In this document: positions 22,723 through 52,140 of the stretch, in pieces
Position numbering within the stretch: the first letter of the stretch is position 1
How the letters are laid out: the number at the start of each line of letters is the position of its first letter
Virus record (IMG/VR): IMGVR_UViG_3300032295_003763
Span: 32,001 to 96,000 of that record
Length of the DNA stretch: 64,000 nt
From: a virus
Lineage: Duplodnaviria; Caudoviricetes
Reading direction: 5' to 3' (one strand)
Position numbers and translations under genes: made by a program
The notes under the pieces: model-generated
Told to the model about the DNA's origin: nothing
Database searches by the model: none
What the model saw: the letters and a program-made list of their open reading frames with translations, nothing else

Positions 22723-22758
22723 AATGAAATGTATTATTTTTGAATATATTCTAGATAT

Positions 22759-22785: not shown

Positions 22786-22803
22786 TATTTTAATTTACGT
22801 TTT

Positions 22804-24567: not shown

Positions 24568-24583
24568 TGCTTTAATAAAAAAT

Positions 24584-24610
24584 AAGGGGCATAATCAAAT
24601 TATGCCCCTT
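24584..24610 (-). terminator. Intrinsic terminator after gp32
   Basis: 12-bp stem aaggggcataat/attatgcccctt followed by a U-tract on the minus strand. Confidence 0.8.
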
Positions 24611-24626
24611 TGTGGAGTAAACTCAA

Positions 24627-28520: not shown

Positions 28521-28543
28521 AAGCCCCGATTGGGGCTTTTTTT
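28519..28543. terminator. Bidirectional intrinsic terminator
   Basis: aaaagcccc-gatt-ggggctttt between convergent genes. Confidence 0.85.
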
Positions 28544-29098: not shown

Positions 29099-29788
29099 AT
29101 GAGAAATTTTAAAGAATTTTTGACACTATTAAGCGAGTCCTCAATCATTGAGCAGGATTCCTTAAAAGAGCAATACCAAATAGAGGAAATTCTTTTGGAA
29201 AATGGATGTAATATATGTCTATTTAGTTCAGCAGGGATGGAACCAGATAATCGTGGATTAGTTAATCCCGACATAAGAAGGCTTAAAGGCACTTTAGGGG
29301 CTGTACAAACGCTGAATAACACAAAAGCAGGTCATATTATCAATCAAGCAGCAAAGATGTTCTCAGAGCATATGGTTGATAAAAATTTCGATGTTGTTGG
29401 AACAATCAAGACCATGAAAACTAACTTAGCAGGTGATCTAGTCGATAAAATAGATTTCTCAGATGGTCGAAAGCCTATGGTATTGAAAAACCTTATCTAT
29501 TTGACAAAAACTAGAGACGATGTTAAAACAACTAGCGAAAACATCGATAAGAAGGTTTCTAGAATGTTTAAGTTCGGAGATTTTGATATTGAAAAGATCG
29601 GTAAGGACGATAAGGCGAATGTAAAAGGTTTCTTGGGTGTAAATCCATCACTTGAGCATAAAATTATGGGTAAAAACATCGCAATCATCGATGACTATGC
29701 TGAAACTGGCACAACATTGAGAGAAGCATGTGATGCGTTGCTCAAATGCGGTGCTAAATCAGTTTCTGGATATGCTATATTGAAATAA
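29099..29788 (+). CDS. Type I phosphoribosyltransferase-fold protein with capsid-targeting-like leader
   Basis: PRPP loop KNIAIIDDYAETGTTLREA...GAKSV; leader MRNFKEFLTLLSE. Confidence 0.82.
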   Translation: MRNFKEFLTLLSESSIIEQDSLKEQYQIEEILLENGCNICLFSSAGMEPDNRGLVNPDIRRLKGTLGAVQTLNNTKAGHIINQAAKMFSEHMVDKNFDVVGTIKTMKTNLAGDLVDKIDFSDGRKPMVLKNLIYLTKTRDDVKTTSENIDKKVSRMFKFGDFDIEKIGKDDKANVKGFLGVNPSLEHKIMGKNIAIIDDYAETGTTLREACDALLKCGAKSVSGYAILK

Positions 29789-35506: not shown

Positions 35507-36187
35507 TTAATTATTTATTTCTGAAAGATGCTCTTGGAACAAATTATAAATAGTAGGTGTCCACAAATCCTTGGATAAATCTATTGGGCTTAAATTAGCA
35601 GCATTCTTTATAGTTGGGTCTGCTCCAAAATCTAATAACAATTGAACTGTATCATCCGATTCTCTTTCTAATGCATAATGTAAGGGTGTATTACCCTCAT
35701 CGTCTTGTGCATTTGGATTTATACCTTGGGCTAAAAATAATTCAGTAAGAGGCAGGTTAGCATATTCAGCCGCTAAGTGTAATGGAGTAGCAGCATTAAA
35801 TTTGCTTTTGATGCTCTTTACATTCGCACCATACTCAATAAGTGTTTTTGCAACATCTACCCCCTTATAGTTTTCTGCTACACTAAATATAGGGGTAAAA
35901 CCCGATTCATCTTCTATATTTGGATCCATACCATAATCTAAAAGCATCTTAACTAGATCCGCTTTAGTTTCATATCGGCATGCTATATGTAAAACAGTTT
36001 CACCAAAAGCATCATCAATATACTCCAAGTTTGCCCCAAGTTCTATAATATTTTTTACATAATCAATATTCGCATCTTTGGTTTCTCTTTTCTTAATCTC
36101 ATCAATAATTAATTTAGTCTTATTATTGGGAGACATAATCATATATTCATATGGATCAAATTCTTCAAAGAGTTTAATATACTTCAT
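35507..36187 (-). CDS. Ankyrin-repeat protein with capsid-targeting-like leader
   Basis: GETVLHIAC, GFTPIF, ATPLHLAA, GNTPLHYA; leader MKYIKLFEEF. Confidence 0.92.
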   Translation of the reverse strand: MKYIKLFEEFDPYEYMIMSPNNKTKLIIDEIKKRETKDANIDYVKNIIELGANLEYIDDAFGETVLHIACRYETKADLVKMLLDYGMDPNIEDESGFTPIFSVAENYKGVDVAKTLIEYGANVKSIKSKFNAATPLHLAAEYANLPLTELFLAQGINPNAQDDEGNTPLHYALERESDDTVQLLLDFGADPTIKNAANLSPIDLSKDLWTPTIYNLFQEHLSEINN

Positions 36188-36196: not shown

Positions 36197-37483
36197 TTAG
36201 ATTATAATAGGTTCTTTAGGCTCACCCTTTTCATCTGATTCAACATCGGGCCATACTTTACCTGACTTAGCAGTTGGCTTAGATTCTTCTTTCTTTTTTT
36301 CTTCCTCTTTTGCGGTAACATAAGGTAAATAAGAATCACTAAGATTTTCTAAAGCCCATCTGGTCTGCTTTCCTATTCTACCATCTACAGTCAATTTTCT
36401 TCCATCTTCGTTCATGGAATTTTCTTGAAAACGAATGACAGCAGAATGTGTAAGTTCACCAAATTTTCCAGTTATACCACCTTTAAATATACCCATTGCT
36501 TGAAGTATCTTTTGAACAACTTTTATTATTGCACCTTCTTGGATACCATTATATCCAATCCATGTTTTATTAGGGGAATATGATTCTAGCTCTTTAGCAA
36601 ACTTAGATGCTAATTTAGAACTGATCTTCTCCTCTTCTATCAAAATACAATTATCAATAAGTAATTCTAAACAATGAACTAAAACTGTTGCTCTCCATGA
36701 TATATCTGCACCTGGAAGCAAATCATAATACCGCATGTGATAATATGTGTCCTGTATAGATTCTGCTAATTTCTTAAAAGGCTTTTCTATAACACTCTCG
36801 AACTCAGTCAAGTAATCAATTTCTGTACTCTCTCCGAATATTGAATGGAATGTGCTTATGTCATATTTTTTAACAAAGTCAGATAATCCTAAAAATGTTT
36901 GAGAAGGCTGATAATTACCCATAAGATTAGTTAAAAATACACCAATCATATAAATAGGATTTCTATATTTTCTCGTTTTAATTAAAATTTCTTTCTGAAC
37001 AACATCGATTGGACTACTTGCATCAGTAAAGTCAGCATCAGATCTTTCGATTTTTACTTTCTTCAAATTTTTAATCTGGTCTGGGAGAATAGTGCTTAAA
37101 TAAGATTTATAATTATTTATATCTTGCTTAATGACCTTAGCTGCCTTTTTAACTTTATCTTTATTTTCCTTTAGATATAACAAGTCTTGATATACTTCTA
37201 CATCCGTCTGACTAGTAGATTTCTCAAGTAATGTCATCATACCGCTTGTACATGACTTATAACCAACATCAACCATATTCCATAGTGATGATGTTGGAAG
37301 GAGAGCTTCTTGGAATGTTTCATTACCATTAAATATTTCAATAGTTGATTGTGCTGAAAGAGCAGTAATTTGATAAAGGTCTGACATTCTGAACTCTTTC
37401 AATGTCAAACCATAATAACCATCATAAATGCCAGCTATTTCATTTAATTTAGCTTCTTTGAATTTACTATATCGTGTAATCAC
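36197..37483 (-). CDS. Putative internal virion protein with C-terminal PG_binding_1 domain
   Basis: IKVVQKILQAMG...GKFGELTHSAVIRFQ...LTVDGRIGKQT; leader ..KFKEAKLNE; GTG start. Confidence 0.8.
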   Translation of the reverse strand: MITRYSKFKEAKLNEIAGIYDGYYGLTLKEFRMSDLYQITALSAQSTIEIFNGNETFQEALLPTSSLWNMVDVGYKSCTSGMMTLLEKSTSQTDVEVYQDLLYLKENKDKVKKAAKVIKQDINNYKSYLSTILPDQIKNLKKVKIERSDADFTDASSPIDVVQKEILIKTRKYRNPIYMIGVFLTNLMGNYQPSQTFLGLSDFVKKYDISTFHSIFGESTEIDYLTEFESVIEKPFKKLAESIQDTYYHMRYYDLLPGADISWRATVLVHCLELLIDNCILIEEEKISSKLASKFAKELESYSPNKTWIGYNGIQEGAIIKVVQKILQAMGIFKGGITGKFGELTHSAVIRFQENSMNEDGRKLTVDGRIGKQTRWALENLSDSYLPYVTAKEEEKKKEESKPTAKSGKVWPDVESDEKGEPKEPIII

Positions 37484-37523
37484 AGCTTTAAATTATATTT
37501 GCTTGTATATATCAAAAAAATAA

Positions 37524-37550
37524 CCCTCTTTTGAAAATATCAGAAGAGGG
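37524..37550 (-). terminator. Intrinsic terminator immediately followed by a late motif
   Basis: Hairpin ccctcttctga/tcaaaagaggg with U-tract; GATATATA at 37506-37513. Confidence 0.7.
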
Positions 37551-37571
37551 CTGGAAAATTATAAAATTTAT

Positions 37572-38504
37572 TTAATAACCAAAGTTTTTCAGATTATCTG
37601 GATTGAAAGATGTGGTAGATGCATCAACACTAACTCTCCTAGTCTTAGTAATTGTGCCTTTAGGTTTAGAAACCACTGATACCTCAGTATCGGCTTTCTT
37701 ATCATCGGATTTTACATCTTCAATTATATTTTCTGATATTACTTCAGCCAATCCTTCTACATAGTATTTATATGCAAGTAAAGAAATATCTCTGATGATA
37801 TAATTCCCTATGTTATTTTTATCAAATGAAGAAATAGAACTTTTTGAAATTTTAAAACCAGGTGTATCGGAATAACCTGTCAATATTTCTGGCGATATTC
37901 CTAATTTAGGATCAAAATCCCTCGAAGTCAATGCGGATTTGAGGTCTTGAATGAATTTAGTTTTATTACTAATTTTTTCAAAAACATCTCTTTGTGAACT
38001 GTTTAATTTATCAAATATTCCTTTAGATTTTAATAAATCTACTAATTTATTTTCAGAAAGTAATTTAACAACATTTGAAGGATTTTTCAAATTTTCACTA
38101 GCAGATGCCATCACATAACTTTCACTACCTATATTTGGAATAGATATTGAATCTAATATATTTTTATCAGTTCTATATTCATTCTCCAATTCCTTTAAAA
38201 CACTAGCAGGGAAATCAGTATAATTTGGATTAGTATATTTTTCAATCTTTTTCCACATTGGATTAAATACATCTTTAGCCTTAAAATTCGTAGTTCCATT
38301 TTCTGGCGTAATAATCGTATTTAAGTCCGTATTAGCTGTACCTAAGATTCTTTTAACCAATTTATTATACATTTCAGAATGCACATATTCCATCAAGGTT
38401 TTATCTGTATAAACAGATTCATTTACATTATCAATATTATATTCTGAATTTGAATTATTTTCAGAAATAAATTGACTATAATTTAATATTTTTGACATAT
38501 TCAT
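37572..38504 (-). CDS. Putative internal virion protein
   Basis: Leader SKILNYSQFISE...VNE|S; no PG-binding domain seen. Confidence 0.7.
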   Translation of the reverse strand: MNMSKILNYSQFISENNSNSEYNIDNVNESVYTDKTLMEYVHSEMYNKLVKRILGTANTDLNTIITPENGTTNFKAKDVFNPMWKKIEKYTNPNYTDFPASVLKELENEYRTDKNILDSISIPNIGSESYVMASASENLKNPSNVVKLLSENKLVDLLKSKGIFDKLNSSQRDVFEKISNKTKFIQDLKSALTSRDFDPKLGISPEILTGYSDTPGFKISKSSISSFDKNNIGNYIIRDISLLAYKYYVEGLAEVISENIIEDVKSDDKKADTEVSVVSKPKGTITKTRRVSVDASTTSFNPDNLKNFGY

Positions 38505-38508
38505 CTAT

Positions 38509-40029
38509 TTATTTTACAGAAGACACATTATTAGGATTTGTATCCATAAAGCTTGTACTACCTACATTAGACAATGGACCCTGTGCATATTTTTGTTTTA
38601 GTGCTTGCACATAACCATTAATAAGAGCTTTAGTCTCTCTTCCAATTTTACCATCTTGTAATTTAGCACCAGCTTTCATTTGGAAATCCTTTACCCCACG
38701 CTCTGTTATAGTATCAAATACTTCAGAATTCAATTTACTCTTTTCAACATTACCAGAATAAATCAATAAGTTGTTAATCAATTTAACAACCTCTGGGTTC
38801 ATTTTTCTTGATCCAACTTTATAAACAAGTCTATCGGTTGTAAAAAATCCAAGATTTTCTAATTTTTCTACAATCTCTGCTTGTGCCATAGCTTTATTTC
38901 TAAGAATATTAAACTTCTTTTCACCCGCTTCCTTTTTAATTGTTTCTTCTTTCTTTACTACTAAACTTTCAACTTCTAAATTCAAGTTTATAAGTTTCAA
39001 AGAAACTAAAGAAACCACACACATATACATTACCTGCATAGATGGAGTAAAGATATTCTTTGTATCTTCATCTGGGCTTTGCAAAAACACTCTCTTTAAA
39101 AGAATTGAACTAACTTCATTTAACAATTCACCCATAGGTTCAAATACACCAGAATCTATTGAAGGTATAAATTGTTTCATAGCCATAATTGCATCAGGCC
39201 CAACTACTCCGCTAGTAAGATTTATTGAAGTATAATTCTTTCCAAATTTAGTTGAAAGCTGTTGACCATAAGGATACATGTTTATAACCATTTCATAAAA
39301 GCCTGCTAAACGGTCATATAAATCTACAGATTTAATAAGTTCATTAGGTTCTAACAAAGATCCAACTAAAAGTTTAGGATTAGATTGTATTGTATCTGAT
39401 TCAATCTCTTCTAGTTCCATACCGTCTACAACTGTATACAATCCTTTCAGACCAACAGTTGATGCTGACTGTTCTAAACTAGTCAAAGTTTGTTTAATTA
39501 TACTAGATATATCTAAATTATACAATGAAATAAAACTTTGCTTCAACGCTTCTGATTTAAAATCTATTGTAGTAGATTTCATAAAATTCTTTACAGCTTC
39601 ATCAATTTTAGGTATAACTGATGATATTCCACTAGGACTTGTAATTTCTGAAATCTTTTTCTGTCTTTCACCATAACTAGTTTTAGTAGCATCAATTACA
39701 GCCTGAAAACCAGCTGATAAGTCCTTTTCTATGAAGAGGATTCTAGTATCCATATAACTGATTTGAGATCTAATTAATTCAAATGCACTCGTATTAGATG
39801 CCTTATCTTTCCCCATAACTGGAGCCAATGATGGCATATTAGATTTAATAAATGTATGGATCGCATCAGATTTTTCTAAATCCAAACCTTCAAATAGTTT
39901 GTCGATCGTCAATTCAGACAATCTAAATTTAGCATCTTGATCAAATAGACCGAACCAGTCAGATGAAATAAAATTACTTTCATTCAATCTGAATTGATCA
40001 TGGTTATTATAAAAGTTTTTAAAAAGCAT
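38509..40029 (-). CDS. Putative internal virion protein with hydrophobic helix and C-terminal PG_binding_1 domain
   Basis: FDTITERGVKDFQ...QDGKIGRET; hydrophobic PSMQVMYMCVVSLVSL; leader ...FRLNE|S. Confidence 0.78.
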   Translation of the reverse strand: MLFKNFYNNHDQFRLNESNFISSDWFGLFDQDAKFRLSELTIDKLFEGLDLEKSDAIHTFIKSNMPSLAPVMGKDKASNTSAFELIRSQISYMDTRILFIEKDLSAGFQAVIDATKTSYGERQKKISEITSPSGISSVIPKIDEAVKNFMKSTTIDFKSEALKQSFISLYNLDISSIIKQTLTSLEQSASTVGLKGLYTVVDGMELEEIESDTIQSNPKLLVGSLLEPNELIKSVDLYDRLAGFYEMVINMYPYGQQLSTKFGKNYTSINLTSGVVGPDAIMAMKQFIPSIDSGVFEPMGELLNEVSSILLKRVFLQSPDEDTKNIFTPSMQVMYMCVVSLVSLKLINLNLEVESLVVKKEETIKKEAGEKKFNILRNKAMAQAEIVEKLENLGFFTTDRLVYKVGSRKMNPEVVKLINNLLIYSGNVEKSKLNSEVFDTITERGVKDFQMKAGAKLQDGKIGRETKALINGYVQALKQKYAQGPLSNVGSTSFMDTNPNNVSSVK

Positions 40030-40064
40030 TGTTTTATAATTATTTTGTTCTTCTATATATCTGT

Positions 40065-40127
40065 ATAATAAAACTAGATATGCTCAATAAAGCAAAAAAC
40101 TTCATTGAGCATATTTTAGTTTATTAT
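40065..40127 (-). terminator. Long imperfect hairpin (probable terminator) followed by a late motif
   Basis: aaactagatatgctcaat...attgagcatattttagttt inverted repeat; GATATATA at 40054-40061. Confidence 0.6.
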
Positions 40128-40288
40128 TATTCTTCTAACAACTTATAAACTTCTGTGAAATCAAAGTTATTACCATCTTTTAGAATAGTAAAACTCATTT
40201 CTTTTTTATCTTCTTCGAAAAGAATAGAGTTACTTTCGTTTATTGTGTCATTTGAAAGAAAATCATTGAATTTTAATATTTTCATCAT
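40127..40288 (-). CDS. Small 53-aa protein missing from the ORF track, with capsid-targeting-like leader
   Basis: Hand translation MMKILKFNDFLSNDTINESNSILFEEDKKEMSFTILKDGNNFDFTEVYKLLEE*; fills the gap in the operon. Confidence 0.75.
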   Translation of the reverse strand: MMKILKFNDFLSNDTINESNSILFEEDKKEMSFTILKDGNNFDFTEVYKLLEE

Positions 40289-40300
40289 GTTTTATTATTT

Positions 40301-41719
40301 TTAAGCTTTATTATCACTTGTAGTATCTACACCCTTAACTGCCACTTTATCTTCTTCTGATTTACCTTCCATTCTAGTTTTTAAATCTTCTACAAAAGTA
40401 GATATTGATAATTTTGTATTTTTACCTATTCTTCCATCAGATTTTAAACCTTGTCCGTTAATCTTAATTTTCGATTGGAAAGTTTTTACAGCTTCACCTA
40501 ATATATCCGCATCGAAAGTACCTCTATTGATATAACTTGATGATTTAGGTAAAAGACCCATTTCGCTGAAAAGTTTTTTCAAAGAAACGATCATATCCTG
40601 CTCAATCTTAGAAAATTTCTTTTTTTCATAAAAAATCTTTTCACTTTCAAAGAATCCAAGCTTTTCGAGTTCACCATACGAATCTAAAATACCTTTAGCT
40701 TTAGCTTGTACTTTTTCGGATAAAATAGATTTTTTCTCTTCTTTCTTCTCTTCACCCTTAACTGATTCTACTTCTGTTGAAGCAATAGCCTTTAATACCA
40801 TAACTGTAGTTAAAGAAATGAATAGTGCTTGCAAAGAAGGAATAGTGATATTCTTCTTATATTCAGCACCCAATAAACCATATTGTTCTTCTACAATTTC
40901 TTTACAGATAGAATTCAAAAATTCTTTAAAATCATCTATCTTTGAAGGAATAATCTTATTCTTTAAATCAGCTGAAATAGAAATAGAACCTACAATTGAT
41001 TCTAAATAATCATAAGGATTATTATTATATGATATAAATTTCAATCCATCGATATTCATTGATTTTAATACCATTTCTAATAACATAGAAACTCTTACAA
41101 TAGGATTCTTACCCATAATATTCTTTTCTATAGTAGAATCAATATCAGTTTCTTTTAACCACAGGAAAGAATCTAAAGCAAATGAATCAGGTTCAATCTC
41201 TTTCAAACCCATATCATCTACCTTTTGATACACGGAATCCTTTAATCCAGTTTGATTTCCTTGAATATTTGCCGTTAAAGCTTTAAAAAAGATTTCTAAA
41301 ATTGTATCTTGACCCTTTAAAGATCTAACATTAGAAACAAGTTTTTTAATATCTTGTTTATTTTCTTTTAAAAATTCAGAAACTTTTTCTACAATATCCT
41401 TTTCAGCTTTCTTTACTGCTTCTTTAACATAATTCAATTGTTCTTCAACAATTCTGTCAGCAGTTGTATCTTCAGCTGTACTTTCATTAAAGAGATCTTT
41501 AGCTACTGGTAAATTTCCAGATAGCTTTGTATAAGTTTCAGAATCAGTGTCGATTTCCAAGCCTCTTAAAAGATGGTAAATACTAAGTTCTTTTAAGTAT
41601 GGTTTAGCACTTGTTCTAAAAAGTCCGCCTGAAAAACTTTCGTTAATGAAAACAGTTTTGGATTTCAAAGCTTGTTTCAATTCATCTACTCGTTTTTGGT
41701 AAAAATTTTCGTCAATCAT
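40301..41719 (-). CDS. Putative internal virion protein with hydrophobic helix and C-terminal PG_binding_1 domain
   Basis: GTFDADILGEAVKTFQ...LKSDGRIGKNT; hydrophobic PSLQALFISLTTVMVLKAIA; VFINE|S. Confidence 0.78.
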   Translation of the reverse strand: MIDENFYQKRVDELKQALKSKTVFINESFSGGLFRTSAKPYLKELSIYHLLRGLEIDTDSETYTKLSGNLPVAKDLFNESTAEDTTADRIVEEQLNYVKEAVKKAEKDIVEKVSEFLKENKQDIKKLVSNVRSLKGQDTILEIFFKALTANIQGNQTGLKDSVYQKVDDMGLKEIEPDSFALDSFLWLKETDIDSTIEKNIMGKNPIVRVSMLLEMVLKSMNIDGLKFISYNNNPYDYLESIVGSISISADLKNKIIPSKIDDFKEFLNSICKEIVEEQYGLLGAEYKKNITIPSLQALFISLTTVMVLKAIASTEVESVKGEEKKEEKKSILSEKVQAKAKGILDSYGELEKLGFFESEKIFYEKKKFSKIEQDMIVSLKKLFSEMGLLPKSSSYINRGTFDADILGEAVKTFQSKIKINGQGLKSDGRIGKNTKLSISTFVEDLKTRMEGKSEEDKVAVKGVDTTSDNKA

Positions 41720-41734
41720 ATAATTTAGGTTTTT

Positions 41735-43828
41735 TTATCTATTTGCTAATGCCGCTTGCATTTGTTGTATATATCCCTGTGTCTGCTGTCTTTTTTGATA
41801 TTCTTCCTTAGAAATTGTACCCTCTAAGGAACTTTTAACTACTCCCGACAAATATTCTATCTGTTTAGCAATATAGTTAAGTGTTGGAAGATCAGCTTTA
41901 CCATTTATTTCTATTTCTGTACTTGTAGGTTTTGCATTCGTTTGGATAGAAGCTACAATTTTAGCCATCTCTTCATCATATTTACCATCAGCTTCGCCTG
42001 AATATATTCCAAGTTTTTTAAGACCCATTTGCAACATTTTAACATCCTCACCTTCATCACCGATCTGTATATACTTTCTTTCTTGACCTGTGCTATCCTT
42101 TCTGTTTGTAATACCAACAGGTTTATCGAGATTTTTACTATCTGCTGTTAAAGGTATTTTACCTTGATAGAACTCTTTTTCAAACACATGGAAAGCTGAT
42201 GAATAAGCAGATACTAGTCCCATTGTGACTAATCCTAGAGATGGGAGTTCATCATGATTCTCCCATTCCCGTTCTAAGCTATTCACAAAACTCATTGATG
42301 CGGTAGAATTTGCTTTAATATAATATGGAAAAGCTTCGCTATCTATTTGTTGTATACATTTTTGATAATCAGAATCTGACATGATTTTAGAATTATTCAA
42401 ACTAGTACACCATGCTTTAATTTTATCGGTAATATCTTGTGACTCTAATGATTTTTTAAAGCTTTCTCCAATTTCATCGAATGTAAAGAATGGTTCTAAT
42501 TTTTGATTTGCTAAATCCTTTTCAAAAACGGAAACTAATTCTCTCACTGGTTCTTTCGTAGTATCACTATCTGATTTTTCAAACCATTTTGCAATCCAAT
42601 ATATTCCATAAGCCATTCCTCCAAATTTTAATATACCCCAAGCAGCCGCTGGTATTTTAAAAATAAATCCACCTAAAGTAAATACATTAACTATAGCCTT
42701 AATGCTATCAGTTAAACCCTTTCTTAAATTTGTAAAGAATTTCCACAGACCTTTACCACCCCTGCCATCTGTTGTTTTGGTTTTTTTATTTTTTAAATTT
42801 TCACGGAATTTATCCCAAAATCCTTTCGCCTTTTCTCCCTCATTAGAATTAGCTGTAGGCATGCTTGGATCAGCTTTAGGTGTTGCATCTACATTTGGCG
42901 GTGAATCTACATCTGGAGTTTTTGTAGATGGCTTACCTTGTGTGTGAGTTGGATCAACATTACCAAGATTTATATTATCCGCATCTTGTTTAATTTTAGT
43001 TGTCGTATCCTTCAAAGCATCCTGTGCATCTTTAGGTGCTTTGCCTATATTCTCTGCAACATCATCAGCTGCGTTGGCGATTTTTTTTGCAGCATCATCA
43101 ACAGAACTAGATGGGGTATAATGCATACTATAAGTAAACGCTTTACCTGTTGATTGTGCAGCCCTCGCTGCATCATCAGAAGCTTTAGCAGCACCACCAA
43201 GTCCCTCACCACCTTTAAATAATTTACCTATTGCTTTTGTAAATGCTTCAAATCTCGATTCATTTACATATTCATACGATTCAGATGTATTTTGCCCTTT
43301 AGGTTCGATGACCGCTGTATTTAATGATTGAACTAATTGATTTACTGGTTCTTTAGATAGATACCAATTCACTAAAGAATTTCTAATTATAGTTCCTAAA
43401 GTAATTGGATTACTATTAAGAATTTTAGAAGTTTCTTCATCTATACCTTCTGAATTAAATTTTAAATCAGAATTAGCAGATGAATTTAAAATATTAGCAA
43501 TATTAGCAACATAATATTTAGCAGCAACTTCCAACATTAATGAATCTTTCTTAAGAGGTTCTGCAAAATCTAATTGTTCAGCTCTATCCTCATCCATTAT
43601 ACCCATAAGTTGAGCATAAATATTTGCTGGTATATTACCAATAGGAGTATTATAAAGTTTCTTAATATTCTCATCTATTTCTATACCCTCAGACCCAGGA
43701 ATACTTAAAAGAGGTTTTCCATATTCGGTAGCAAATTCAGAAGCAGGCTTAACTATCTTCTCATCGATCCATGATGGTAGACCTTCTTCATTTAACTTGT
43801 TTTCATATTCATTAAATCTCTTAATCAT
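41735..43828 (-). CDS. Putative internal virion protein with Gly/Ala-rich region, transmembrane hairpin and PG_binding_1 domain
   Basis: IQIGDEGEDVKMLQMGLKKLG...ADGKYD; hydrophobic AIVNVFTLGGFIFKIPAAAWGILKFGGMAYGIYWIA; leader MIKRFNEYENKLNE. Confidence 0.8.
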   Translation of the reverse strand: MIKRFNEYENKLNEEGLPSWIDEKIVKPASEFATEYGKPLLSIPGSEGIEIDENIKKLYNTPIGNIPANIYAQLMGIMDEDRAEQLDFAEPLKKDSLMLEVAAKYYVANIANILNSSANSDLKFNSEGIDEETSKILNSNPITLGTIIRNSLVNWYLSKEPVNQLVQSLNTAVIEPKGQNTSESYEYVNESRFEAFTKAIGKLFKGGEGLGGAAKASDDAARAAQSTGKAFTYSMHYTPSSSVDDAAKKIANAADDVAENIGKAPKDAQDALKDTTTKIKQDADNINLGNVDPTHTQGKPSTKTPDVDSPPNVDATPKADPSMPTANSNEGEKAKGFWDKFRENLKNKKTKTTDGRGGKGLWKFFTNLRKGLTDSIKAIVNVFTLGGFIFKIPAAAWGILKFGGMAYGIYWIAKWFEKSDSDTTKEPVRELVSVFEKDLANQKLEPFFTFDEIGESFKKSLESQDITDKIKAWCTSLNNSKIMSDSDYQKCIQQIDSEAFPYYIKANSTASMSFVNSLEREWENHDELPSLGLVTMGLVSAYSSAFHVFEKEFYQGKIPLTADSKNLDKPVGITNRKDSTGQERKYIQIGDEGEDVKMLQMGLKKLGIYSGEADGKYDEEMAKIVASIQTNAKPTSTEIEINGKADLPTLNYIAKQIEYLSGVVKSSLEGTISKEEYQKRQQTQGYIQQMQAALANR

Positions 43829-43837
43829 TAGATTTTC

Positions 43838-45058
43838 TTAATTTTGAGTCGCTACATCTTCTTCAGAGAAATCACTAATCAAATCATATATGACTTCCCC
43901 CAATATCCAAAATGCATAAATATTTAAAAGAAACATCACAATAGGTCCTGAACCTGGGATTATAATGTTAGATATAGATGCTATAATTGTATCTATAAGA
44001 ATATACTTTCCAAAATCTGATAAAGCATTTATTAAAATAGCAAATGTAGGCCCTAACATTTCAAATTTAAAAGGTCCATTTATCCCAAAATGTTCAGTTA
44101 AGAATTTTGAAGAATATTCAAGTGCTTCATTTCCATTTGCTTTAATATATTCTGAAAATTCCTTTATCCAACTAAATGGTGGCAAATTGTCTAATTTTTG
44201 TATACACCATTTATAAAAATCATCAATCATCTGTATAGATTCATCTAATCTTCTCATATCTTTAAAATTAGGAATCTTAATACTAATTAGATTTAATTTA
44301 GAATGATTATTTACATCTATTGCATTTTCTTTTATTGCATCTGGTATAAATGTTAATAAGTGTTCTTTAATGTTATTTTGAATTGAATTAACATTATCTG
44401 ATTCATTAACAACTTTATTAATAGACATAGTAACCTTTGAAGCAAAAACATCACCCTCGATAATTTTCCCGATGGATTCGACAAACATATTGCTCAATTG
44501 ACCTGTTTCTTTTGTTAATGATTCCCAAATAAATGCATTTTTATCAAACACATCTTCATTTAAAGATTCTTTAATTGAGTTAATCTGTTGATTTATGGAT
44601 ATAGTCATTTGTCTCTTTAGTGATCTATTCCCCGCAAACCATTTATTAGTTTCTATTTTTACACTGTCCCATGCAGTTTGTATACCTTCCATGATTTTAT
44701 CAACCACAGAGCTTATAGCTGACATTAAATTAGTCCCTAATTCAACTACCCAGTTAATAGCACCCTTCACAGCTTTCTTTGAAGGTTCTATAATATTTTT
44801 TTGAATAAAGTTTATAGCATCAGAATACAAATCTTCTTTCAATAATCCCCATTGATCGATTGATAATTGTCTTTCTGATATAAATTCCAAAACAAGCTTT
44901 TGCTCTCTTTCTAAATAAATATCTTCATTTCCCAATATACTTTCAGCTATCGGGATATATGAATTATTTTTAAAACCAAAATTATGCAATCTTTGGGATT
45001 GAAGATATTGGTCAAAATTTAATATAGTTTCTCTTTTAGGTATTTGCATAGACATCAA
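43838..45058 (-). CDS. Putative internal virion protein with C-terminal hydrophobic helices
   Basis: ILNFDQYL leader; amphipathic WVVELGTNLMSAISSVVDKIMEGIQTAW; C-terminal hydrophobic hairpin IIASISNIIIPGSGPIVMFLLNIYAFWIL. Confidence 0.7.
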   Translation of the reverse strand: MMSMQIPKRETILNFDQYLQSQRLHNFGFKNNSYIPIAESILGNEDIYLEREQKLVLEFISERQLSIDQWGLLKEDLYSDAINFIQKNIIEPSKKAVKGAINWVVELGTNLMSAISSVVDKIMEGIQTAWDSVKIETNKWFAGNRSLKRQMTISINQQINSIKESLNEDVFDKNAFIWESLTKETGQLSNMFVESIGKIIEGDVFASKVTMSINKVVNESDNVNSIQNNIKEHLLTFIPDAIKENAIDVNNHSKLNLISIKIPNFKDMRRLDESIQMIDDFYKWCIQKLDNLPPFSWIKEFSEYIKANGNEALEYSSKFLTEHFGINGPFKFEMLGPTFAILINALSDFGKYILIDTIIASISNIIIPGSGPIVMFLLNIYAFWILGEVIYDLISDFSEEDVATQN

Positions 45059-45119
45059 TAATTTATAGTTCTATATATCTTTTTTCAAACATGTGCTTTC
45101 AAGTTATTACCAACGATAT

Positions 45120-46097
45120 TTATCCCTGCCAACGAGATCTACTACTACCAACAGTATCTCTTACATCAACATGAACGAAGTTTGGATAAATCCCTAAACC
45201 ACCTTGATGGAACGAATCAACATAATTATAAAGTTCACTAGGTGTAACACCTGATATCGTTATATCTGCTGCGTTACCAAACATATGTTGAGATCTTGTA
45301 GCTACGCCTTTACTTTTACTTCTACTACGCAATCCAGCATTATATGATGGGGTTCTATATCCTGAATTTATGTTAATATCTTTTCCAAAATGTTCTCTTA
45401 TCTTCTCAAGTAATTCTATCAAATAAGGATTTATTAAAATTACATCAGATCCGTCTTTACAAGCAAATTCAGATACTTTGAAATTAGGAGAAAGGTTTTT
45501 ATCACCATCTTTACTGTTGCTATATTGTATAGATTTAGAAATGTATTGTTCAAATTCACTCGAAGGGTAATCAACACCTCTATTTACACCCTCACCCTTT
45601 GTAACCGAAGAAGCTGGTATTTGTATCTTCAAGTCTGGTGTTGGGGTGACAACAGCAGGTATTTTAGGTTCTTTAAGAACACCTTTTGTATCTTCTTCAC
45701 CTTCTTTAGATTCAAATTCCAATAAAAATTTTATGAATGACAATGGAATTTGATTTTCAATCTGTATAGGTAAATTAAAATCTTTAGATATAGTTTTAGC
45801 TGCATCTAAAGTTACTTGATCTAAAAGTCCATCTGCACTATGATTCTTGAGGTATCCTAATCCAATCAAAATAGATTGTAGAACTGAAATGTCTTGACTT
45901 CTATCATTTACATTTAAGACCTTTAAACCATCTATAAGCTCTTGTGAGAAATATTCTCTAGTTATCTCTTTAATTAGGTCACTCTTCTCTTTTTTATCAG
46001 ATTTACTTGTAATTAAACCAATAGCTTCTTGTGCATTTTGAATTTGTACTTCGTTTAAAACAAATTCACCAAAGCTGTATATTTTCTTTCTATTCAT
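45120..46097 (-). CDS. PG-binding domain + M15A-type (Peptidase_M15_3) Zn peptidase
   Basis: VLQSILIGLGYL..ADG; SPNF.VSEFACKDG, INSGYR, SQHMFGNAADI, FVHVDVR; leader IYSFGEFVLNE. Confidence 0.9.
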   Translation of the reverse strand: MNRKKIYSFGEFVLNEVQIQNAQEAIGLITSKSDKKEKSDLIKEITREYFSQELIDGLKVLNVNDRSQDISVLQSILIGLGYLKNHSADGLLDQVTLDAAKTISKDFNLPIQIENQIPLSFIKFLLEFESKEGEEDTKGVLKEPKIPAVVTPTPDLKIQIPASSVTKGEGVNRGVDYPSSEFEQYISKSIQYSNSKDGDKNLSPNFKVSEFACKDGSDVILINPYLIELLEKIREHFGKDININSGYRTPSYNAGLRSRSKSKGVATRSQHMFGNAADITISGVTPSELYNYVDSFHQGGLGIYPNFVHVDVRDTVGSSRSRWQG

Positions 46098-46102
46098 AAG
46101 TA

Positions 46103-47059
46103 TTAAGCTATCATATTTTGAGAATCTACTCTCGACAATTCAAAGTGCATACCGTCCTTTCTTCTATTAAAATGACCACCCCAAAAGAACCCAAGTTTTA
46201 GTGCCGCTGGGACTAATTCCCTAACACTACCCTTTTCACCAACAGCTGGGGGCATCTTACCTAAAGGATTACTACGTGTGTTAATGTCAAATGCTATACC
46301 GAAAGCATGAGGACTTAAAGTACTTTGAGTTCCCCTAATTACTCTAGGGACAAAGCATCCTGCCCAGTTTTCTATTTTGCTCAAAAGTCCAAGATTTTCC
46401 CATTCTTGCCAAAGTGCAAGTATTGGTTTTGCAGCAAGTCTATGGCAACGAATTTTAGTGAGTTTAGGAGGATTTTGTATTTTAGACAATTGCGGTAAAT
46501 CTATTGTAATAATATTTTCTTTTACAAAATTATTTTGAACAGTAATATAATCACCTGATGCCTTTACCCATACAATTTTTCCGAATAAATTTTCCTTTTC
46601 AACTAAATTTAATGAATGTATATCAGTTGGTTTTGGTGGCCAGTTGTATTTACCATCTTTATACTTAGGATCATCGTATGAATCCTTTTTTTTATCAGTA
46701 GAAAATTCAAGCTCACTTGATTGATATGTTGTAAATAAATCTATAACTTCTTTAGATATAGGTTTATTCACATCTACTGATACATTAGACTTAGAAGCAA
46801 ATTTTTTAATAGCTTCCATAGTCGTTTGATCCAGTTGCCCACTCATTTGTGATGCTGACAAATACCCTAACCCTAATAATAAAACTTGAATTATTTTTAC
46901 ATCCTGTGTAGTTTCATTAAAATTAATATCAGAACTACCCTTTTGTAAGTTTGAAGATATAAATCCCTTACTAACCTGTTGAACAATTTCAGATTTTTCC
47001 TTTGAGCTTTTGGAATTCTTTAAAGAATCTATAATATCCCTAGGTGTCTCTAATTTCAT
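46103..47059 (-). CDS. PG-binding domain + M15C-type (Peptidase_M15_4) Zn peptidase
   Basis: IIQVLLLGLGYL...TMEAIKKF; R.IRG, LSPHAFGIAFDIN, FFWGG.F..KDGMHFE. Confidence 0.9.
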   Translation of the reverse strand: MKLETPRDIIDSLKNSKSSKEKSEIVQQVSKGFISSNLQKGSSDINFNETTQDVKIIQVLLLGLGYLSASQMSGQLDQTTMEAIKKFASKSNVSVDVNKPISKEVIDLFTTYQSSELEFSTDKKKDSYDDPKYKDGKYNWPPKPTDIHSLNLVEKENLFGKIVWVKASGDYITVQNNFVKENIITIDLPQLSKIQNPPKLTKIRCHRLAAKPILALWQEWENLGLLSKIENWAGCFVPRVIRGTQSTLSPHAFGIAFDINTRSNPLGKMPPAVGEKGSVRELVPAALKLGFFWGGHFNRRKDGMHFELSRVDSQNMIA

Positions 47060-48849
47060 TTTTTAGATCCTATTATTTTATTATAAACGAAAGGAAATAT
47101 CGTTGGATCTTCATTTATTAAGTAGTCTGAAAATATTTCAGATGCTTTATCTAAATCACTAGAAATATAATAAGAACCTGGTTTATCTTTAAATTCAACA
47201 AACACTGTTTCTAATAATTTTACCTTTTTATCATCAGGAAATTTAGCAAAATTATAAACGATCGTTTTTATTGTGGTAATAACATCATCCTCATTAGTCG
47301 AAGATGTTAATATTTCGGAAATTTGAGGTATATTTTTACCTGATATTTTATTCTTTAACTTGTCTAAAACTGTTTTTGAGAAATTAGCAGTTTGTATAGT
47401 ATTTTGAATCTGTGTAGGCTCAGATTTTTCTTCAGTAGTTTTATTAGTTTCTTCTTGATTTTTAATATCTGATTCAATGTTTGTTATATCATCACTAGAT
47501 ACATCACTCGAATCTTTAAAAAACTTTATCAATTCTTGTATAATCGTTTCATCAGTCCATATAAGATTAGATAATTTAGTCGCTAATGTTTCTAAACTCA
47601 AATCTGATTTTATTACTTTTTGATCATCTTTACTTTGAAACATCGTATCCGAAATATTGGATGATTTCAAATAGTCAATCTTATTTACAAGTATGTCTTT
47701 TATGAAGTTATTAAGTACCTTTTTCCCACTTTCTTCATCCATGGATTCAAAGATATTTAAAACCATTTTTTGCTTTATATTAGAAGAATCTTTTTTGGCT
47801 CTTTTTATAACTCCATTTAAAAATGCTTCTGTTGTAAAGTTACCTATATTTTCCACAAGATCACTACTTAAAGTCTCTTCGGTTTTCTTGATTTCTTCTG
47901 GTGTTTCTTTTGGAATATCCTTTACTTCTGGAGTTATTGGCTCAGTTGCTGATACCTTTTGATCTTCTTCCTTTTTAACTTCTTCTTCAGCCTCAACTGA
48001 AGCATTAGCAATATCTTCGATTTGATCTTCACTCTTACTCTTCAATTCTGCGTTCCAAGAATCCCATTGTGCTTTTCTGTCAACTGAAGGTTTTCCAAAA
48101 ATAGCAACAGGACCTTCGATTGATTCTAATTTAAAATTGATTATTTCAGCATTTTCAAATTTATTATTCTTGAATAATTTAAGTAGTGACTCATAAGGAA
48201 TTTGAACAGCATTCGCTAAAGTAGTCAAGAATATAAAACCAGGTGTACTATTTTGTTGGTCATAATCATATCCTGGATACTTCACTAGAAAATGTGTAAC
48301 CTGAAAAATAGCATTGTCATAATTTATCTCTTCAGAATCTACATCTCCGCCTTTAATCCAAGACATAAAATCTGAAAAAAATGATTCAGAAACATAACTA
48401 TCATATACTCTCCTATTACCATATCTATCATAATAGTATTTAGATGAAGATCTTCTTCTTTTAGGATACTTTTCATATCCAACTAAATAATCATGTAAAC
48501 TATCGATATTAGGACTATATGACTTTGTGAATTTTGGATCCTTAGATTTAGTTGTAGGCATTAATACTACAAGATCACCTTTCCATGTATTCGAATTAAC
48601 GCGAAACGTCTTCATTGTTTCATAGTTGATAGAATTAATAAAATTCTTTAGATACTTTTCAGTAACTACAATAGACTCTGCCATTTTTTTAAGAGGGCAT
48701 AAACCAGGTAGCATGTGTTTAGAATCGAATCCAAATTGAGGATTCATATCAAGAAAGTTTTGAATTCTAGATACTACGTTATCTATTTCTTTTTTCTTTC
48801 TGTTTTTTAAAAAATCAAAAAATGATTCGCTAACATTCGAATATCTCAT
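47056..48849 (-). CDS. Putative internal virion protein with internal repeats
   Basis: Two N-terminal units that each start VSE|SFF; two C-terminal repeats (..SL/DL..[LA]...[LF]S..[IL]..[DE]..I); acidic linkers. Confidence 0.7.
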   Translation of the reverse strand: MRYSNVSESFFDFLKNRKKKEIDNVVSRIQNFLDMNPQFGFDSKHMLPGLCPLKKMAESIVVTEKYLKNFINSINYETMKTFRVNSNTWKGDLVVLMPTTKSKDPKFTKSYSPNIDSLHDYLVGYEKYPKRRRSSSKYYYDRYGNRRVYDSYVSESFFSDFMSWIKGGDVDSEEINYDNAIFQVTHFLVKYPGYDYDQQNSTPGFIFLTTLANAVQIPYESLLKLFKNNKFENAEIINFKLESIEGPVAIFGKPSVDRKAQWDSWNAELKSKSEDQIEDIANASVEAEEEVKKEEDQKVSATEPITPEVKDIPKETPEEIKKTEETLSSDLVENIGNFTTEAFLNGVIKRAKKDSSNIKQKMVLNIFESMDEESGKKVLNNFIKDILVNKIDYLKSSNISDTMFQSKDDQKVIKSDLSLETLATKLSNLIWTDETIIQELIKFFKDSSDVSSDDITNIESDIKNQEETNKTTEEKSEPTQIQNTIQTANFSKTVLDKLKNKISGKNIPQISEILTSSTNEDDVITTIKTIVYNFAKFPDDKKVKLLETVFVEFKDKPGSYYISSDLDKASEIFSDYLINEDPTIFPFVYNKIIGSKK

Positions 48850-48858
48850 AGTTTTAAA

Positions 48859-49323
48859 TTATATTTCTTCGTGGCTCAATACTGCAAATTTTGATTCACC
48901 AACTTCTTCAATTGGCATATTCTCTTCAGAACTAATGAATCTGATAGTTGCATCTTGTAATAAATATTTCCCAGCAGGAAATGAATTGTTGAGATTGTTT
49001 TTTGTTGTATATTTAATCAAAAGCTCAATCTCTTTAGCATTAGATTTACCAGCCAAATTAGCAATCACAAGATTAATTTGAGCATATTCAATCGAAGGTC
49101 CGAATATACCTAAACCTGCTCCAGTAACTGGATTTGAAATGAAAGTCTGACTATCACCATAATCTCTATGTAAAGAAAGAATCTCAATCTTTACTTTATA
49201 TGGTTTTAATACAACACTATTAATGTGTTTTTTGATAGATTCTAAATCTTCCTTTAAAGGTTCACCCGCTACTGATTTAGCCTCATTGACCTTTTGTTCC
49301 TTGTATTCCTTAAAAATTCTCAT
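48859..49323 (-). CDS. Putative internal virion protein
   Basis: Leader MRIFKEYKEQKVNE; GATATATA at 49351-49358. Confidence 0.7.
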   Translation of the reverse strand: MRIFKEYKEQKVNEAKSVAGEPLKEDLESIKKHINSVVLKPYKVKIEILSLHRDYGDSQTFISNPVTGAGLGIFGPSIEYAQINLVIANLAGKSNAKEIELLIKYTTKNNLNNSFPAGKYLLQDATIRFISSEENMPIEEVGESKFAVLSHEEI

Positions 49324-49363
49324 AGAAGTTTTACAATTTTTTTATAGTTCTATATATCAAACT

Positions 49364-49388
49364 AAAACCCTATAAAATATAGGGTTTT
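49364..49388 (-). terminator. Intrinsic terminator after the portal gene
   Basis: 11-bp stem aaaaccctata/tatagggtttt. Confidence 0.75.
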
Positions 49389-49393: not shown

Positions 49394-51022
49394 TTATACT
49401 GCAGGTTCTTCTGTTGCCGCACCCGTATCTACAGGTTCATCTCCTGGTTGATCTCCTGCCTTCTTTTCCTTTTCCTTAATCATCGATCTGTTTTCTTGCA
49501 ATTCTTCACGAGTTAAGTTCAAGAATGCTTCCATTGCAAAATCCAAATCGAAATAAGAATCGTCTTTTGTTCTAGGAATATTGAGCAATTCATTGATTGC
49601 AGATATACGCTTTTGCATAACTTCAACCTTTCTTTGAACTTCAAAACTATTATCACGATTAAACTTTATACCTATACTTGATCTAAACAGGTGATCCCCT
49701 TCAAATTCAGGATATTTCATAATTAATTGTAAAACCAAAGGCTTTAACATAACTTCTTGGAATCCAGAACGAAGTCTATTGATAAAGTTACCAAATCTTA
49801 CCTCATCTCTTTGAATACCATCTGCACCCAAACTCATTGATGCTCCACCATCTGCAAATCGACTTAATGGTATTTTAGATGCTCTTCTAAGTTTTAATTC
49901 AAAATATTTTAAGAAATCAGGGTTTGATAAATCAACACCTTGACCACCAATAACCTCAACATTTGGAGAGTTTCCATCTTTCGAAGGGAACATAAAGTGC
50001 TTGAAGAATGGGATAGAAGGTCTACCATTGATTGATAAAGTACCATCCGCATCGTTGAAAAATATTTCTTCTTTATAATTATTTAGAATTTCAGATAGCT
50101 CTTGCTTTGCCTTTTGTGGAGAATTACTACCGATAGGGATGGTCATCTTCAAACGAAACTGAGCATACATGATATGCCACATAACCTTTGAGTTCTCAAT
50201 CAATCTCAAAAGATTTAAAGGACGTACAAGACGCTCAACGTAACTTACACGATCCATTTGTAAGTTTTGAGCATAAGCTATATAAATAACTGAAGAATCA
50301 TAAATAATCCTTGAGGATTCATTTCCAATCTTTTGAATCCAAACTATGTATTCTTCCCCATCTTCACCAACAATAGTTGATAATTCTAAAGTAGCTGGAT
50401 CTAATTTATTCAAAGCGATAACATCTTCGCCATCTTCATCCGTTACAATTTCGAATGCTAAGAATCCATCTATCAAATATTGTCTAAATAAATTCCAAGC
50501 TTTAGTATTATTGTTAAATCCGAATTTCACATAAAGCTTACGGAATTCTTCATGTATAACATCAAGAATTTCTTCTTTTTTATCTTCACTAAGAAATGAT
50601 TCTAAGCCCTTTGTATCTGGATAGCAGAACCAGTTTTTATCATCATATACAATTGCTTCATCAGCAATCGTATCCAATATCTCTACAACTTCATCATTTA
50701 GTGAAAATGAACGCAAGAAATCTCTCTTACCTACATAATTTGAATCATAAATCGCAAGTGCCTTTAAACCTCCGATATCTTGCATAGCCATAGCAGCAAG
50801 TAATCTCTGATCCCATTGAGAAGAACCATAACCACCATAAACTGAATGTCCAAGTGCACCTGAGCCACCTGCGTTGGTTTCAGTTTCACCAGCACCTTGC
50901 CTTCTTTGAATGATCAAATCATCATAATACATACCGAAAGAAGATAACTTTCTTACATTGTCAGCTGGACCTGATGTAAAGTTATATGTTCTCATTCCAT
51001 CTTTAGAAACAAAACCTGCCAT
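49394..51022 (-). CDS. gp20: T4 gp20-like portal protein
   Basis: ILDTIADEAIVYD, FRQYLIDG, SYVERL.RP.N.LRLIE, LKYF..KL.RASKIP.SRF, IQRDEVRF..FINRLR..F. Confidence 0.93.
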   Translation of the reverse strand: MAGFVSKDGMRTYNFTSGPADNVRKLSSFGMYYDDLIIQRRQGAGETETNAGGSGALGHSVYGGYGSSQWDQRLLAAMAMQDIGGLKALAIYDSNYVGKRDFLRSFSLNDEVVEILDTIADEAIVYDDKNWFCYPDTKGLESFLSEDKKEEILDVIHEEFRKLYVKFGFNNNTKAWNLFRQYLIDGFLAFEIVTDEDGEDVIALNKLDPATLELSTIVGEDGEEYIVWIQKIGNESSRIIYDSSVIYIAYAQNLQMDRVSYVERLVRPLNLLRLIENSKVMWHIMYAQFRLKMTIPIGSNSPQKAKQELSEILNNYKEEIFFNDADGTLSINGRPSIPFFKHFMFPSKDGNSPNVEVIGGQGVDLSNPDFLKYFELKLRRASKIPLSRFADGGASMSLGADGIQRDEVRFGNFINRLRSGFQEVMLKPLVLQLIMKYPEFEGDHLFRSSIGIKFNRDNSFEVQRKVEVMQKRISAINELLNIPRTKDDSYFDLDFAMEAFLNLTREELQENRSMIKEKEKKAGDQPGDEPVDTGAATEEPAV

Positions 51023-51040: not shown

Positions 51041-51652
51041 TCAATTTGATTGAATTTCGGAAACACTTTTTCCAACTATACCGAATGGTATTAAGAGGGG
51101 TATCCATTTCCAATCTTCATAATCTATCGGTATAACGGATCCACTTCTTAGTTTTGACCAAATGAAAGCATCTGATTTTTTACTTACATTTAATCCCATA
51201 CTACTTATATATCCTTTTAAAAAATCGGTCATTCCTTCTACAGAAAATTGTGATAAATCACCCTTTTCTATCCTTTTAGTATTCTCTTCGATATATCTTC
51301 CAAAAAAACTTATAGCACCATCAATAAATATAGCTCTTTGAGTCGAATTAAAATAATTCATATTAATTCCAAATAGCATATTATCAACATTTTTATACTG
51401 AACAGTTTCAGTATGGAATACTATTGGGAATACATCAAAGTAACCTCTTTTAGGTAAATTTTTATTGTCATTTATTGCCATATAAATCTTACCAGAAGGT
51501 ATCATACTCGGTATCATGTAAATCTTATCCTTTATAGGATGTTTCTGCATTAAATACTTCTGCCTGAACCATTCTTGAAGTTCTTCTCCTAGTACTTTAC
51601 TAGCTTCAGATAAACCGCCCTTTAATGTTTCTACTGCTTCTGCTTTAATCAT
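51041..51652 (-). CDS. gp2: T4 gp2-like DNA end protector
   Basis: GKIY, YFDVFPIV, FGINMNY, DW..IP.L; ATGA overlap with gp4 (start at 51652). Confidence 0.7.
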   Translation of the reverse strand: MIKAEAVETLKGGLSEASKVLGEELQEWFRQKYLMQKHPIKDKIYMIPSMIPSGKIYMAINDNKNLPKRGYFDVFPIVFHTETVQYKNVDNMLFGINMNYFNSTQRAIFIDGAISFFGRYIEENTKRIEKGDLSQFSVEGMTDFLKGYISSMGLNVSKKSDAFIWSKLRSGSVIPIDYEDWKWIPLLIPFGIVGKSVSEIQSN

Positions 51653-52140
51653 TTGAATGGCCAGTTTTCTTCTGTTAATACAACATATTTCATGTCTCTG
51701 TCCATAGCCCATTTTATAGCAGCTATCTGTTTTGCTTTATTGACAGTATACATTTTCGTTAATTCAGCATGTCGCATTAGTTTCTTATCAGTTATTCGAC
51801 CTTCTAAAACAGGTTCTCTCGATATTTGTGCACTTGGTTTTATTTCAACAATATATCTATGCCTTTTATTATCATTATCAATAACTTCAATGAAAAAATC
51901 TACATTATAAATATGTTCTTTGTGATCTATTGGACTGATGTATTTAATCTTCACTGGTTCAGAACCCCATCTAATAATTTGAGGAGTTAAATCGCACAAT
52001 ATCATAAATTTACGTTCCCAGGAAGAACGAAATATAACTACCCTCGGATCACCTGCATATTTTTCAGGATTATTAACTTTGTAATAACCTTGAACAAATG
52101 GCCCACTGGAGTTAGGTTTTAATTTTTTTATGTCTTTCAT
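51649..52140 (-). CDS. gp4: T4 gp4-like head completion nuclease (TnsA-like PD-(D/E)XK fold)
   Basis: QGYY..NPEKY.GD, FRSSWERKFM..CD, WGSEP..I.Y.SP.D, YNVDF, VEIKP, NKAK..AA, LTE. Confidence 0.9.
   Translation of the reverse strand: MKDIKKLKPNSSGPFVQGYYKVNNPEKYAGDPRVVIFRSSWERKFMILCDLTPQIIRWGSEPVKIKYISPIDHKEHIYNVDFFIEVIDNDNKRHRYIVEIKPSAQISREPVLEGRITDKKLMRHAELTKMYTVNKAKQIAAIKWAMDRDMKYVVLTEENWPFK

Follow-up and report, generated by a model that had tools for sequence, protein, structure and literature searches.

A portal-adjacent gene cluster in an uncultured T4-type phage encodes predicted capsid-targeted proteins with murein-binding domains

In the literature that we searched, ejectosomes are described for podophages only, and the processing of head cargo is described for T4 and phiKZ-like phages. 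In T4, an N-terminal capsid-targeting sequence (CTS) of 10-20 residues is enough for packaging into the head, the first 10 residues sufficing for internal protein IPIII; the residues important for targeting are 4 and 7, and those important for cleavage, which gp21 carries out after L/I-x-E, are 8 and 10 (PMC9026906; PMC5694885). For T4-type or huge phages, the literature searched held no description of head proteins that combine a leader tag with murein binding. It also yielded no T4-like myophage equivalent of the locus described here, in line with what had been supposed when this DNA was read without database searches (the sequence-only reading). That locus is a cluster of eleven genes beside the portal gene in a 64,000-nucleotide stretch (the window), namely bases 32001-96000 of the 199.9-kb IMG/VR viral contig IMGVR_UViG_3300032295_003763, which has about 30% GC and was judged to be about half complete. 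We take the cluster to be a real, lineage-specific variant of T4 internal-protein cargo with a putative function at the host envelope.

The cluster comprises ten open reading frames (ORFs) of 154-697 amino acids (aa) and one of 53 aa (40127-40288), all on the minus strand and head to tail from 49323 down to 36197, directly downstream of the portal gene, just as the sequence-only reading had it. That reading had also placed the genes under promoter-like motifs, and five copies of GATATATA indeed lie 24-56 nt upstream of 48859, 43838, 40301, 38509 and 36197 (genes are named here by their lower coordinate), where they head transcription units, some of which are separated by terminator-like hairpins. 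The features are listed below in window coordinates, from the portal gene onward; an arrow in a leader marks the predicted cut.

49394-51022, minus strand: T4-type portal gene (gp20; Portal_T4, E 7e-67), the context gene heading the cluster
49364-49388, minus strand: terminator-like hairpin 3' of the portal gene
49351-49358, minus strand: GATATATA late-type promoter of 48859
48859-49323, minus strand: 154-aa protein, 14-residue CTS-like leader ending V-N-E↓A
47056-48849, minus strand: 597-aa acidic protein, V-S-E↓S at residue 8
46103-47059, minus strand: 318-aa protein, N-terminal PG_binding_1-like domain and Peptidase_M15_4, leaderless, isoelectric point 9.2
45120-46097, minus strand: 325-aa protein, leader ending L-N-E, PG_binding_1-like domain and Peptidase_M15_3/MepK-like domain
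45072-45079, minus strand: GATATATA promoter of the 43838-41735 unit
43838-45058, minus strand: 406-aa protein, 38-residue leader (I-A-E↓S), C-terminal hydrophobic hairpin
41735-43828, minus strand: 697-aa protein, leader ending L-N-E, hydrophobic hairpin, PG_binding_1 at residues 593-637
41768-41775, minus strand: GATATATA copy of 40301
40301-41719, minus strand: 472-aa paralog of 38509, leader ending I-N-E↓S, divergent PG-binding-like C-terminus
40127-40288, minus strand: 53-aa ORF, leader ending I-N-E↓S, the eleventh gene
40078-40114, minus strand: terminator-like hairpin
40054-40061, minus strand: GATATATA promoter of the 38509-37572 unit
38509-40029, minus strand: 506-aa protein, 17-residue leader (L-N-E↓S), C-terminal PG_binding_1
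37572-38504, minus strand: 310-aa protein, leaders I-S-E and V-N-E↓S
37506-37513, minus strand: GATATATA promoter of 36197
36197-37483, minus strand: 428-aa protein, GTG start, leader ending L-N-E, PG_binding_1 at residues 317-377
35507-36187, minus strand: 226-aa ankyrin-repeat protein with a leader-like start, adjoining the cluster

Each leader consists of spaced aromatic residues followed by [ILV]-x-E 8-38 residues from the start, and ten of the eleven proteins (all except 46103) have one, the same ten-gene count as proposed beforehand. Across the proteome, [ILV][NS]E is enriched 3.7-fold at residues 10-19, and the strict motif [ILV][NSA]E[SA] occurs at residues 3-40 in 7 of the 11 cluster genes versus 10 of 200 others (Fisher p 1.6e-6). 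When all 210 proteins were ranked by how far their count of [ILV]-x-E-[SAG] exceeds that in shuffles, the first place fell to a 672-aa fusion, encoded elsewhere on the contig, of a Peptidase_S77 (gp21-family) prohead protease (E 3e-11) to a scaffold-like tail; it has 14 sites versus 2.4 expected (z 7.8), including three overlapping V-N-E-S in a run. The second place fell to the cluster gene 43838 (7 versus 1.3 expected, z 4.9), and the major capsid protein was also enriched (z 3.0). An excess in the protease-scaffold fusion, in 43838 and in the capsid protein is what a T4-like maturation protease predicts.

The sites are also conserved. The 28 homologs of 38509 and the 20 of 41735 keep the hydrophobic residue at P-2 and the Glu and vary in the middle residue; three orthologs of 36197 keep its GTG start and its leader; and in a confident AlphaFold2 (AF2) model the leader of 38509 is disordered. 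Several proteins have sites beyond the leader. In 57 homologs of 43838 there are eight conserved Glu columns, five of them in an [ILV]-x-E context, and beyond the leader there are three or more additional [ILV]-x-E↓S sites that are conserved (the predicted cuts include those after residues 38, 163, 218 and 272). From this we predict a multiply cleaved, head-core-type protein, of which the last 133 residues, carrying the hydrophobic hairpin, would be left as a fragment. An invariant I/V-N-E↓S stands at residue 190 of 41735 (20 homologs), and 47056 has, at residue 155, a second copy of its V-S-E↓S site together with the following module of about 60 residues, an internal duplication that makes it look polyprotein-like, with two repeats of cleavage site plus module. 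Taken together, the motif statistics and their conservation support a reading of the leaders as propeptides of the T4 capsid-targeting kind, cleaved by a gp21-type protease, and we consider it likely that the cluster proteins are packaged and processed.

The same type of leader is found well beyond the cluster. About 25-30 otherwise unrelated proteins contig-wide begin with it, many under a GATATATA promoter of their own; examples in the window are 5698-6288, 6338-6898, 8792-9457, 28542-28973, 29099-29788 and 35507-36187. The folds behind the leader include ankyrin repeats, an amidase, M15 and an ATP-grasp fusion (the last just past the window), and such a spread over unrelated folds is as expected of a targeting tag. 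This suggests a very large set of cargo, to which the ankyrin-repeat protein 35507-36187 probably belongs, outside the wall-directed set. At contig 12509-18730, CAP-domain proteins with signal peptides come in alternation with three paralogs that bear the leader.

The promoter motif points to late expression. GATATATA occurs 25 times in the window versus 8.2 expected, a count reached by no shuffle, and contig-wide (64 copies in total) it lies within 80 nt upstream of the start in 50 genes. Sheath, collagen-like fibres and further large structural-type genes are among these, so the motif behaves as a late, structural-type promoter. Matches to sigma-70-type promoters were not more frequent than in shuffles. 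A 1895-aa ORF (window 9552-15239) also stands under GATATATA.

The second line of evidence concerns the cell wall. Six PG_binding_1-type domains had been proposed, and this holds fully for three: 36197 (37.2 bits), 41735 (30.4) and 38509 (27.1) exceed the Pfam gathering score of 23 bits for PG_binding_1 (PF01471). The others, 46103 (20.0 bits), 45120 (14.9) and 40301 (13.1, E 0.11), fall below that cut-off and are weaker matches, consistent with wall-binding domains: 46103 and 45120 share 29% identity over the PG_binding_1-like domain, and 40301 is a full-length paralog of 38509. A small home-made hidden Markov model (HMM) for PG binding, trained without 40301, gave no match to 40301. Four cluster members have a PG-binding domain without an enzyme domain. 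The two zinc M15 peptidoglycan peptidases named earlier are 45120, which matches PF05951 (66 bits) and PF08291 (59 bits), and 46103, which matches PF13539 (58 bits); both have intact zinc ligands of the form H-x6-D...H (H271/D278/H309 in 45120 and H251/D258/H305 in 46103).

The sequence-only reading had further assigned hydrophobic helices or hairpins to at least four proteins and a Sec signal to none, and we agree on both counts. Taking the best 19-residue Kyte-Doolittle window, the maxima are 1.91 for 43838, 1.83 for 40301, 1.73 for 38509 and 1.62 for 41735, which is transmembrane level; the proteome median is 1.0, and 26 of the 210 proteins attain 1.6-1.9. The stretch is a helix at residues 291-309 in 40301 and a glycine-rich hairpin at about residues 376-415 in 41735. 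None of the cluster proteins has an N-terminal Sec-type hydrophobic stretch, an absence that is meaningful because the same phage uses ordinary Sec signals elsewhere: six CAP-domain proteins have classical signal peptides, and a soluble lytic transglycosylase (SLT) enzyme has a signal anchor.

A confident model was obtained for 38509. This AF2 model (mean predicted local distance difference test score, pLDDT, 82) has an all-alpha N-domain, a 64-residue helix, hydrophobic in its first third and Lys/Glu-rich in the remainder, and a C-terminal PG-binding domain. Residues ~394-480 match CtpB (Z 10.7), SleB (Z 9.9; root-mean-square deviation 1.8 over 73 residues) and phiKZ gp144 (Z 8.2), so that the C-terminal domain matches the three-helix fold of solved murein-binding domains and is predicted to bind murein. 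The fold of the N-domain was matched by neither Foldseek (PDB, BFVD) nor VIA-align 2 (PDB representatives), and its family has just 27 representatives among 1.84 billion proteins. A fold comparison with ejectosome and pore-forming proteins had been suggested at the outset; these searches of the 38509 model recognised its PG-binding domain alone. For 41735 the AF2 model is poor (pLDDT 48), and the fold search gave the PG-binding domain only (Z 5-6). Nothing useful came from an NCBIfam search or from comparing 43838 and 47056 with PDB sequences.

A gene of the 38509 type always has a partner directly behind it (37572-type) that is divergent, bears a leader and encodes about 300-360 aa; six pairs were seen, and some of these partners have a glycine-rich hydrophobic stretch. 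A second such pair lies outside the window at contig 22450-24972, on the plus strand and under GATATATA; its 361-aa partner has a glycine-rich hydrophobic stretch and a weak match to an RTX N-terminal domain (E 0.004).

The genomic setting is that of a T4-type head module. The nearest GenBank relatives of the portal protein belong to uncultured huge phages (460-735 kb) and Lak phages, at 32-39% identity, and one cluster protein recurs unchanged on a 348-kb contig. Upstream of the portal gene lies a gene for a gp2-like DNA end protector, and a gp23-type capsid protein and a contractile-tail sheath are encoded elsewhere on the contig. An ORF with a TnsA-like endonuclease N-terminal domain (51649-52140; Pfam E 2.5e-15) overlaps the start of the gp2-like gene and is possibly a homing-type nuclease. 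The protease-scaffold fusion lies at contig 166459-168477, about 85 kb away from the portal gene, to which it is adjacent in relatives. The major capsid protein (contig 164687-166429) shares a module of about 100 residues with a 1301-aa ORF at contig 152258-156163 (39% identity, E 2e-10).

Whether the cluster is conserved as a unit had been set beforehand as a test of the proposal, and we found it syntenic in close relatives, whose portals are 85-93% identical and which keep the whole cluster in order from 48859 to 36197; on this point the proposal stands. The cluster proteins themselves are 28-67% identical in these relatives, except for the better-conserved 36197 and 48859 (the latter the best conserved member, at 78-88%), and the portal evolves far more slowly. 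Such fast divergence resembles that of host-interface cargo. In relatives with about 40% portal identity, the portal, a small leader-bearing protein, the protease-scaffold and the capsid protein are adjacent and the cluster is absent; the same holds for portal, protease-scaffold and capsid protein in the huge phage LR756500, which gave no PG-binding-domain match near its portal. Because distant relatives keep these head genes adjacent without the cluster, the comparison indicates that the cluster is a lineage-specific, fast-evolving insertion into the head module, accessory and not core. Among GenBank phages, neither the whole cluster (megablast) nor 38509 and 41735 (tblastn) had a match, and a scan of viral contigs with 38509 peptides gave no match. 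By BLASTP, 48859 has no similarity to the small leader-bearing protein that follows the portal gene in distant relatives, so that it is at most a putative counterpart. We rejected a transfer from the virion proteome of the cultured Tenacibaculum phage PTm1, whose post-portal gene and capsid protein lack this type of leader.

In the model that we propose, late-expressed cluster proteins would be loaded into the prohead by their short N-terminal capsid-targeting leaders, and the gp21-type prohead protease would trim the leaders after [ILV]-x-E. Like T4 internal proteins, the mature proteins would be kept inside the head until infection and then pass out through the tail. At the host envelope, PG_binding_1 domains would hold murein, at least one M15 peptidase (45120) would cut peptide stems, and the hydrophobic helices or hairpins of 43838, 41735, 40301 and 38509 would engage the inner membrane; their joint effect would be a more stable or a wider entry site for a genome of about 350 kb. 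Envelope action at entry is the most economical reading because there are six wall-binding domains, peptidases, hydrophobic helices and no export signals. The earlier proposal of an ejection or envelope-breach apparatus is upheld in the part that concerns the leaders, which resemble gp21-cut propeptides (the protease is present, and the motif is enriched and conserved), while packaging, cleavage, ejection and any joint apparatus are steps that we infer. A packaged, trimmed and ejected cargo acting on the host envelope at entry is a serious prospect that we hold tentatively, and we are more doubtful about the fuller version, in which a capsid-borne, protease-matured set anchors on murein, cuts it and inserts in the inner membrane as a myophage counterpart of the ejectosome built on a T4 tag, within a cargo system of 30 or more tagged proteins.

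Several observations weigh against this model. The phage is uncultured and known only from metagenomes, and its contractile tail already crosses the wall, so that head-borne wall tools are not obviously needed. No similarity to known ejection proteins or pore formers was seen in Pfam, PHROG, NCBIfam or PDB sequence searches, or in fold searches of two models. In 41735, 45120 and 36197 the Glu is followed by E, V or I, whereas the scaffold prefers S/A/G. The cluster is missing from relatives with the same head module, for which it must therefore be dispensable. The helices are just moderately hydrophobic (1.6-1.9), and that of 38509, confidently modelled inside a long helix, may be buried. The M15 catalytic domains are closest to ordinary, annotated endolysins, and 46103, the sole member to lack a leader and a basic protein, could be an ordinary endolysin itself. 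Other wall enzymes elsewhere on the contig, a leaderless PG_binding_1+CHAP protein and the SLT enzyme, are a weak point, and we count the leader-tagged Amidase_2 protein 8792-9457 as another.

The alternative that survives best accepts packaging and processing and dispenses with the entry device. The proteins would be head-core or scaffold accessory proteins chopped up in maturation, or injected effectors with other aims, such as a superinfection block or the remodelling or tethering of the envelope after entry, and the PG-binding fold may be a protein-protein module in some members. In support of this, 43838 has a scaffold-like density of cleavage sites, 47056 carries its two repeats of site plus module, and the T4 genes after gene 20 encode gp67 and gp68, core proteins that are cleaved into fragments (PMC9026906). 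It also suits this alternative that neighbouring tagged proteins are clearly effectors of other kinds (ankyrin repeats, an ATP-grasp enzyme) and that within the wider clade the cluster is an accessory feature. The presence of six wall-binding domains beside two wall peptidases nevertheless points to murein, and the PG-binding domains are well conserved within the 38509 and 41735 families. We regard an explanation of this kind as rather unlikely.

Another possibility is a late envelope or lysis module that never enters the head, made up of two M15 endolysins and of inner-membrane proteins tethered to murein by a C-terminal PG-binding domain. Insertion would take place from the cytoplasm by way of the internal hydrophobic helix, and the shared N-terminus would have some other role, for example in translation or chaperone binding. 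A PG_binding_1 domain followed by a catalytic domain is the standard layout of endolysins, the M15 domains match annotated ones, 46103 is leaderless and basic, and late promoters suit lysis genes too. The layout of 38509 (large N-domain, hydrophobic helix, charged helix of about 40 residues, PG-binding domain) likewise fits a membrane protein that reaches the wall. Such a module leaves unexplained, however, why the N-terminal motif is the protease site enriched in the scaffold and the capsid protein, and why internal sites are conserved. In addition, no holin-like small membrane gene was found in the cluster, non-catalytic PG binders are of no obvious use in lysis, and a leaderless endolysin candidate, the PG_binding_1+CHAP protein that could serve as lysis enzyme, is present elsewhere together with the signal-anchored SLT. 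On balance, we judge a lysis module improbable.

Last, the proteins could be tail or baseplate parts, that is, virion-associated wall hydrolases and tape-measure-like proteins with hydrophobic segments, as in T5 pb2 and the LysM-bearing baseplate proteins of P2 and T4 (wall-binding modules do occur in baseplates); structural-type promoters and a weak match of 43838 to tape-measure family phrog_5493 (E 1.1e-3, over 139 residues only) agree with this, but recognisable tail genes (the sheath, fibres and large possible tape-measure ORFs) lie elsewhere and lack the leader, prohead-protease processing is a feature of heads, and the cluster sits inside the head module adjoining the portal gene, which makes this reading very improbable.

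We return, then, to packaged cargo acting at entry and to how it compares with known systems. With T4 IPI-III and Alt, the cluster proteins share a short N-terminal leader with spaced aromatics that ends in L/I-x-E, a gp21-family protease, a T4-type portal and capsid protein, late expression, and a tag placed on unrelated, fast-evolving cargo. T4 internal proteins are small and anti-restriction or DNA-associated, whereas the cargo here is large (35-77 kDa) and has murein-binding domains, M15 peptidases and hydrophobic helices; its genes stand in one 13-kb block beside the portal gene, several have extra internal sites, and no sequence homology to T4 internal proteins was seen. The modular PG_binding_1 endolysins, such as phiKZ gp144, and M15 endolysins have the same domain order as 45120 and 46103, but 45120 has in addition a conserved, predicted cleavable leader. 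Head proteins of phiKZ, 201phi2-1 and SPN3US are likewise many and paralogous, cut by a gp21-related protease after x-x-E and ejected with the DNA; there, the motif is S/A-x-E, the propeptides mostly exceed 100 residues, and no murein-binding set is described in PMC9026906 or PMC5694885.

The podophage ejectosomes (T7 gp14/15/16, P22 gp7/16/20, N4 and PhiM1) embody the same idea, in that head-stored proteins exit via the portal and tail, cut murein (T7 gp16 being a transglycosylase) and span periplasm and membrane. Podophages have short tails, a core stack on the portal and no L/I-x-E trimming, whereas the phage described here encodes a contractile-tail sheath. If our model is right, head-borne envelope tools extend beyond short-tailed phages, and huge phages enlarge their injected proteome by means of a simple, portable tag. 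The statistics of protease sites would also offer a sequence-only predictor of packaged, processed proteins in uncultured T4-like phages. For T4, the tag is known on a few small internal proteins; in the phage described here, dozens of proteins, those of a 13-kb block devoted to wall and membrane among them, appear to be loaded by the same means.

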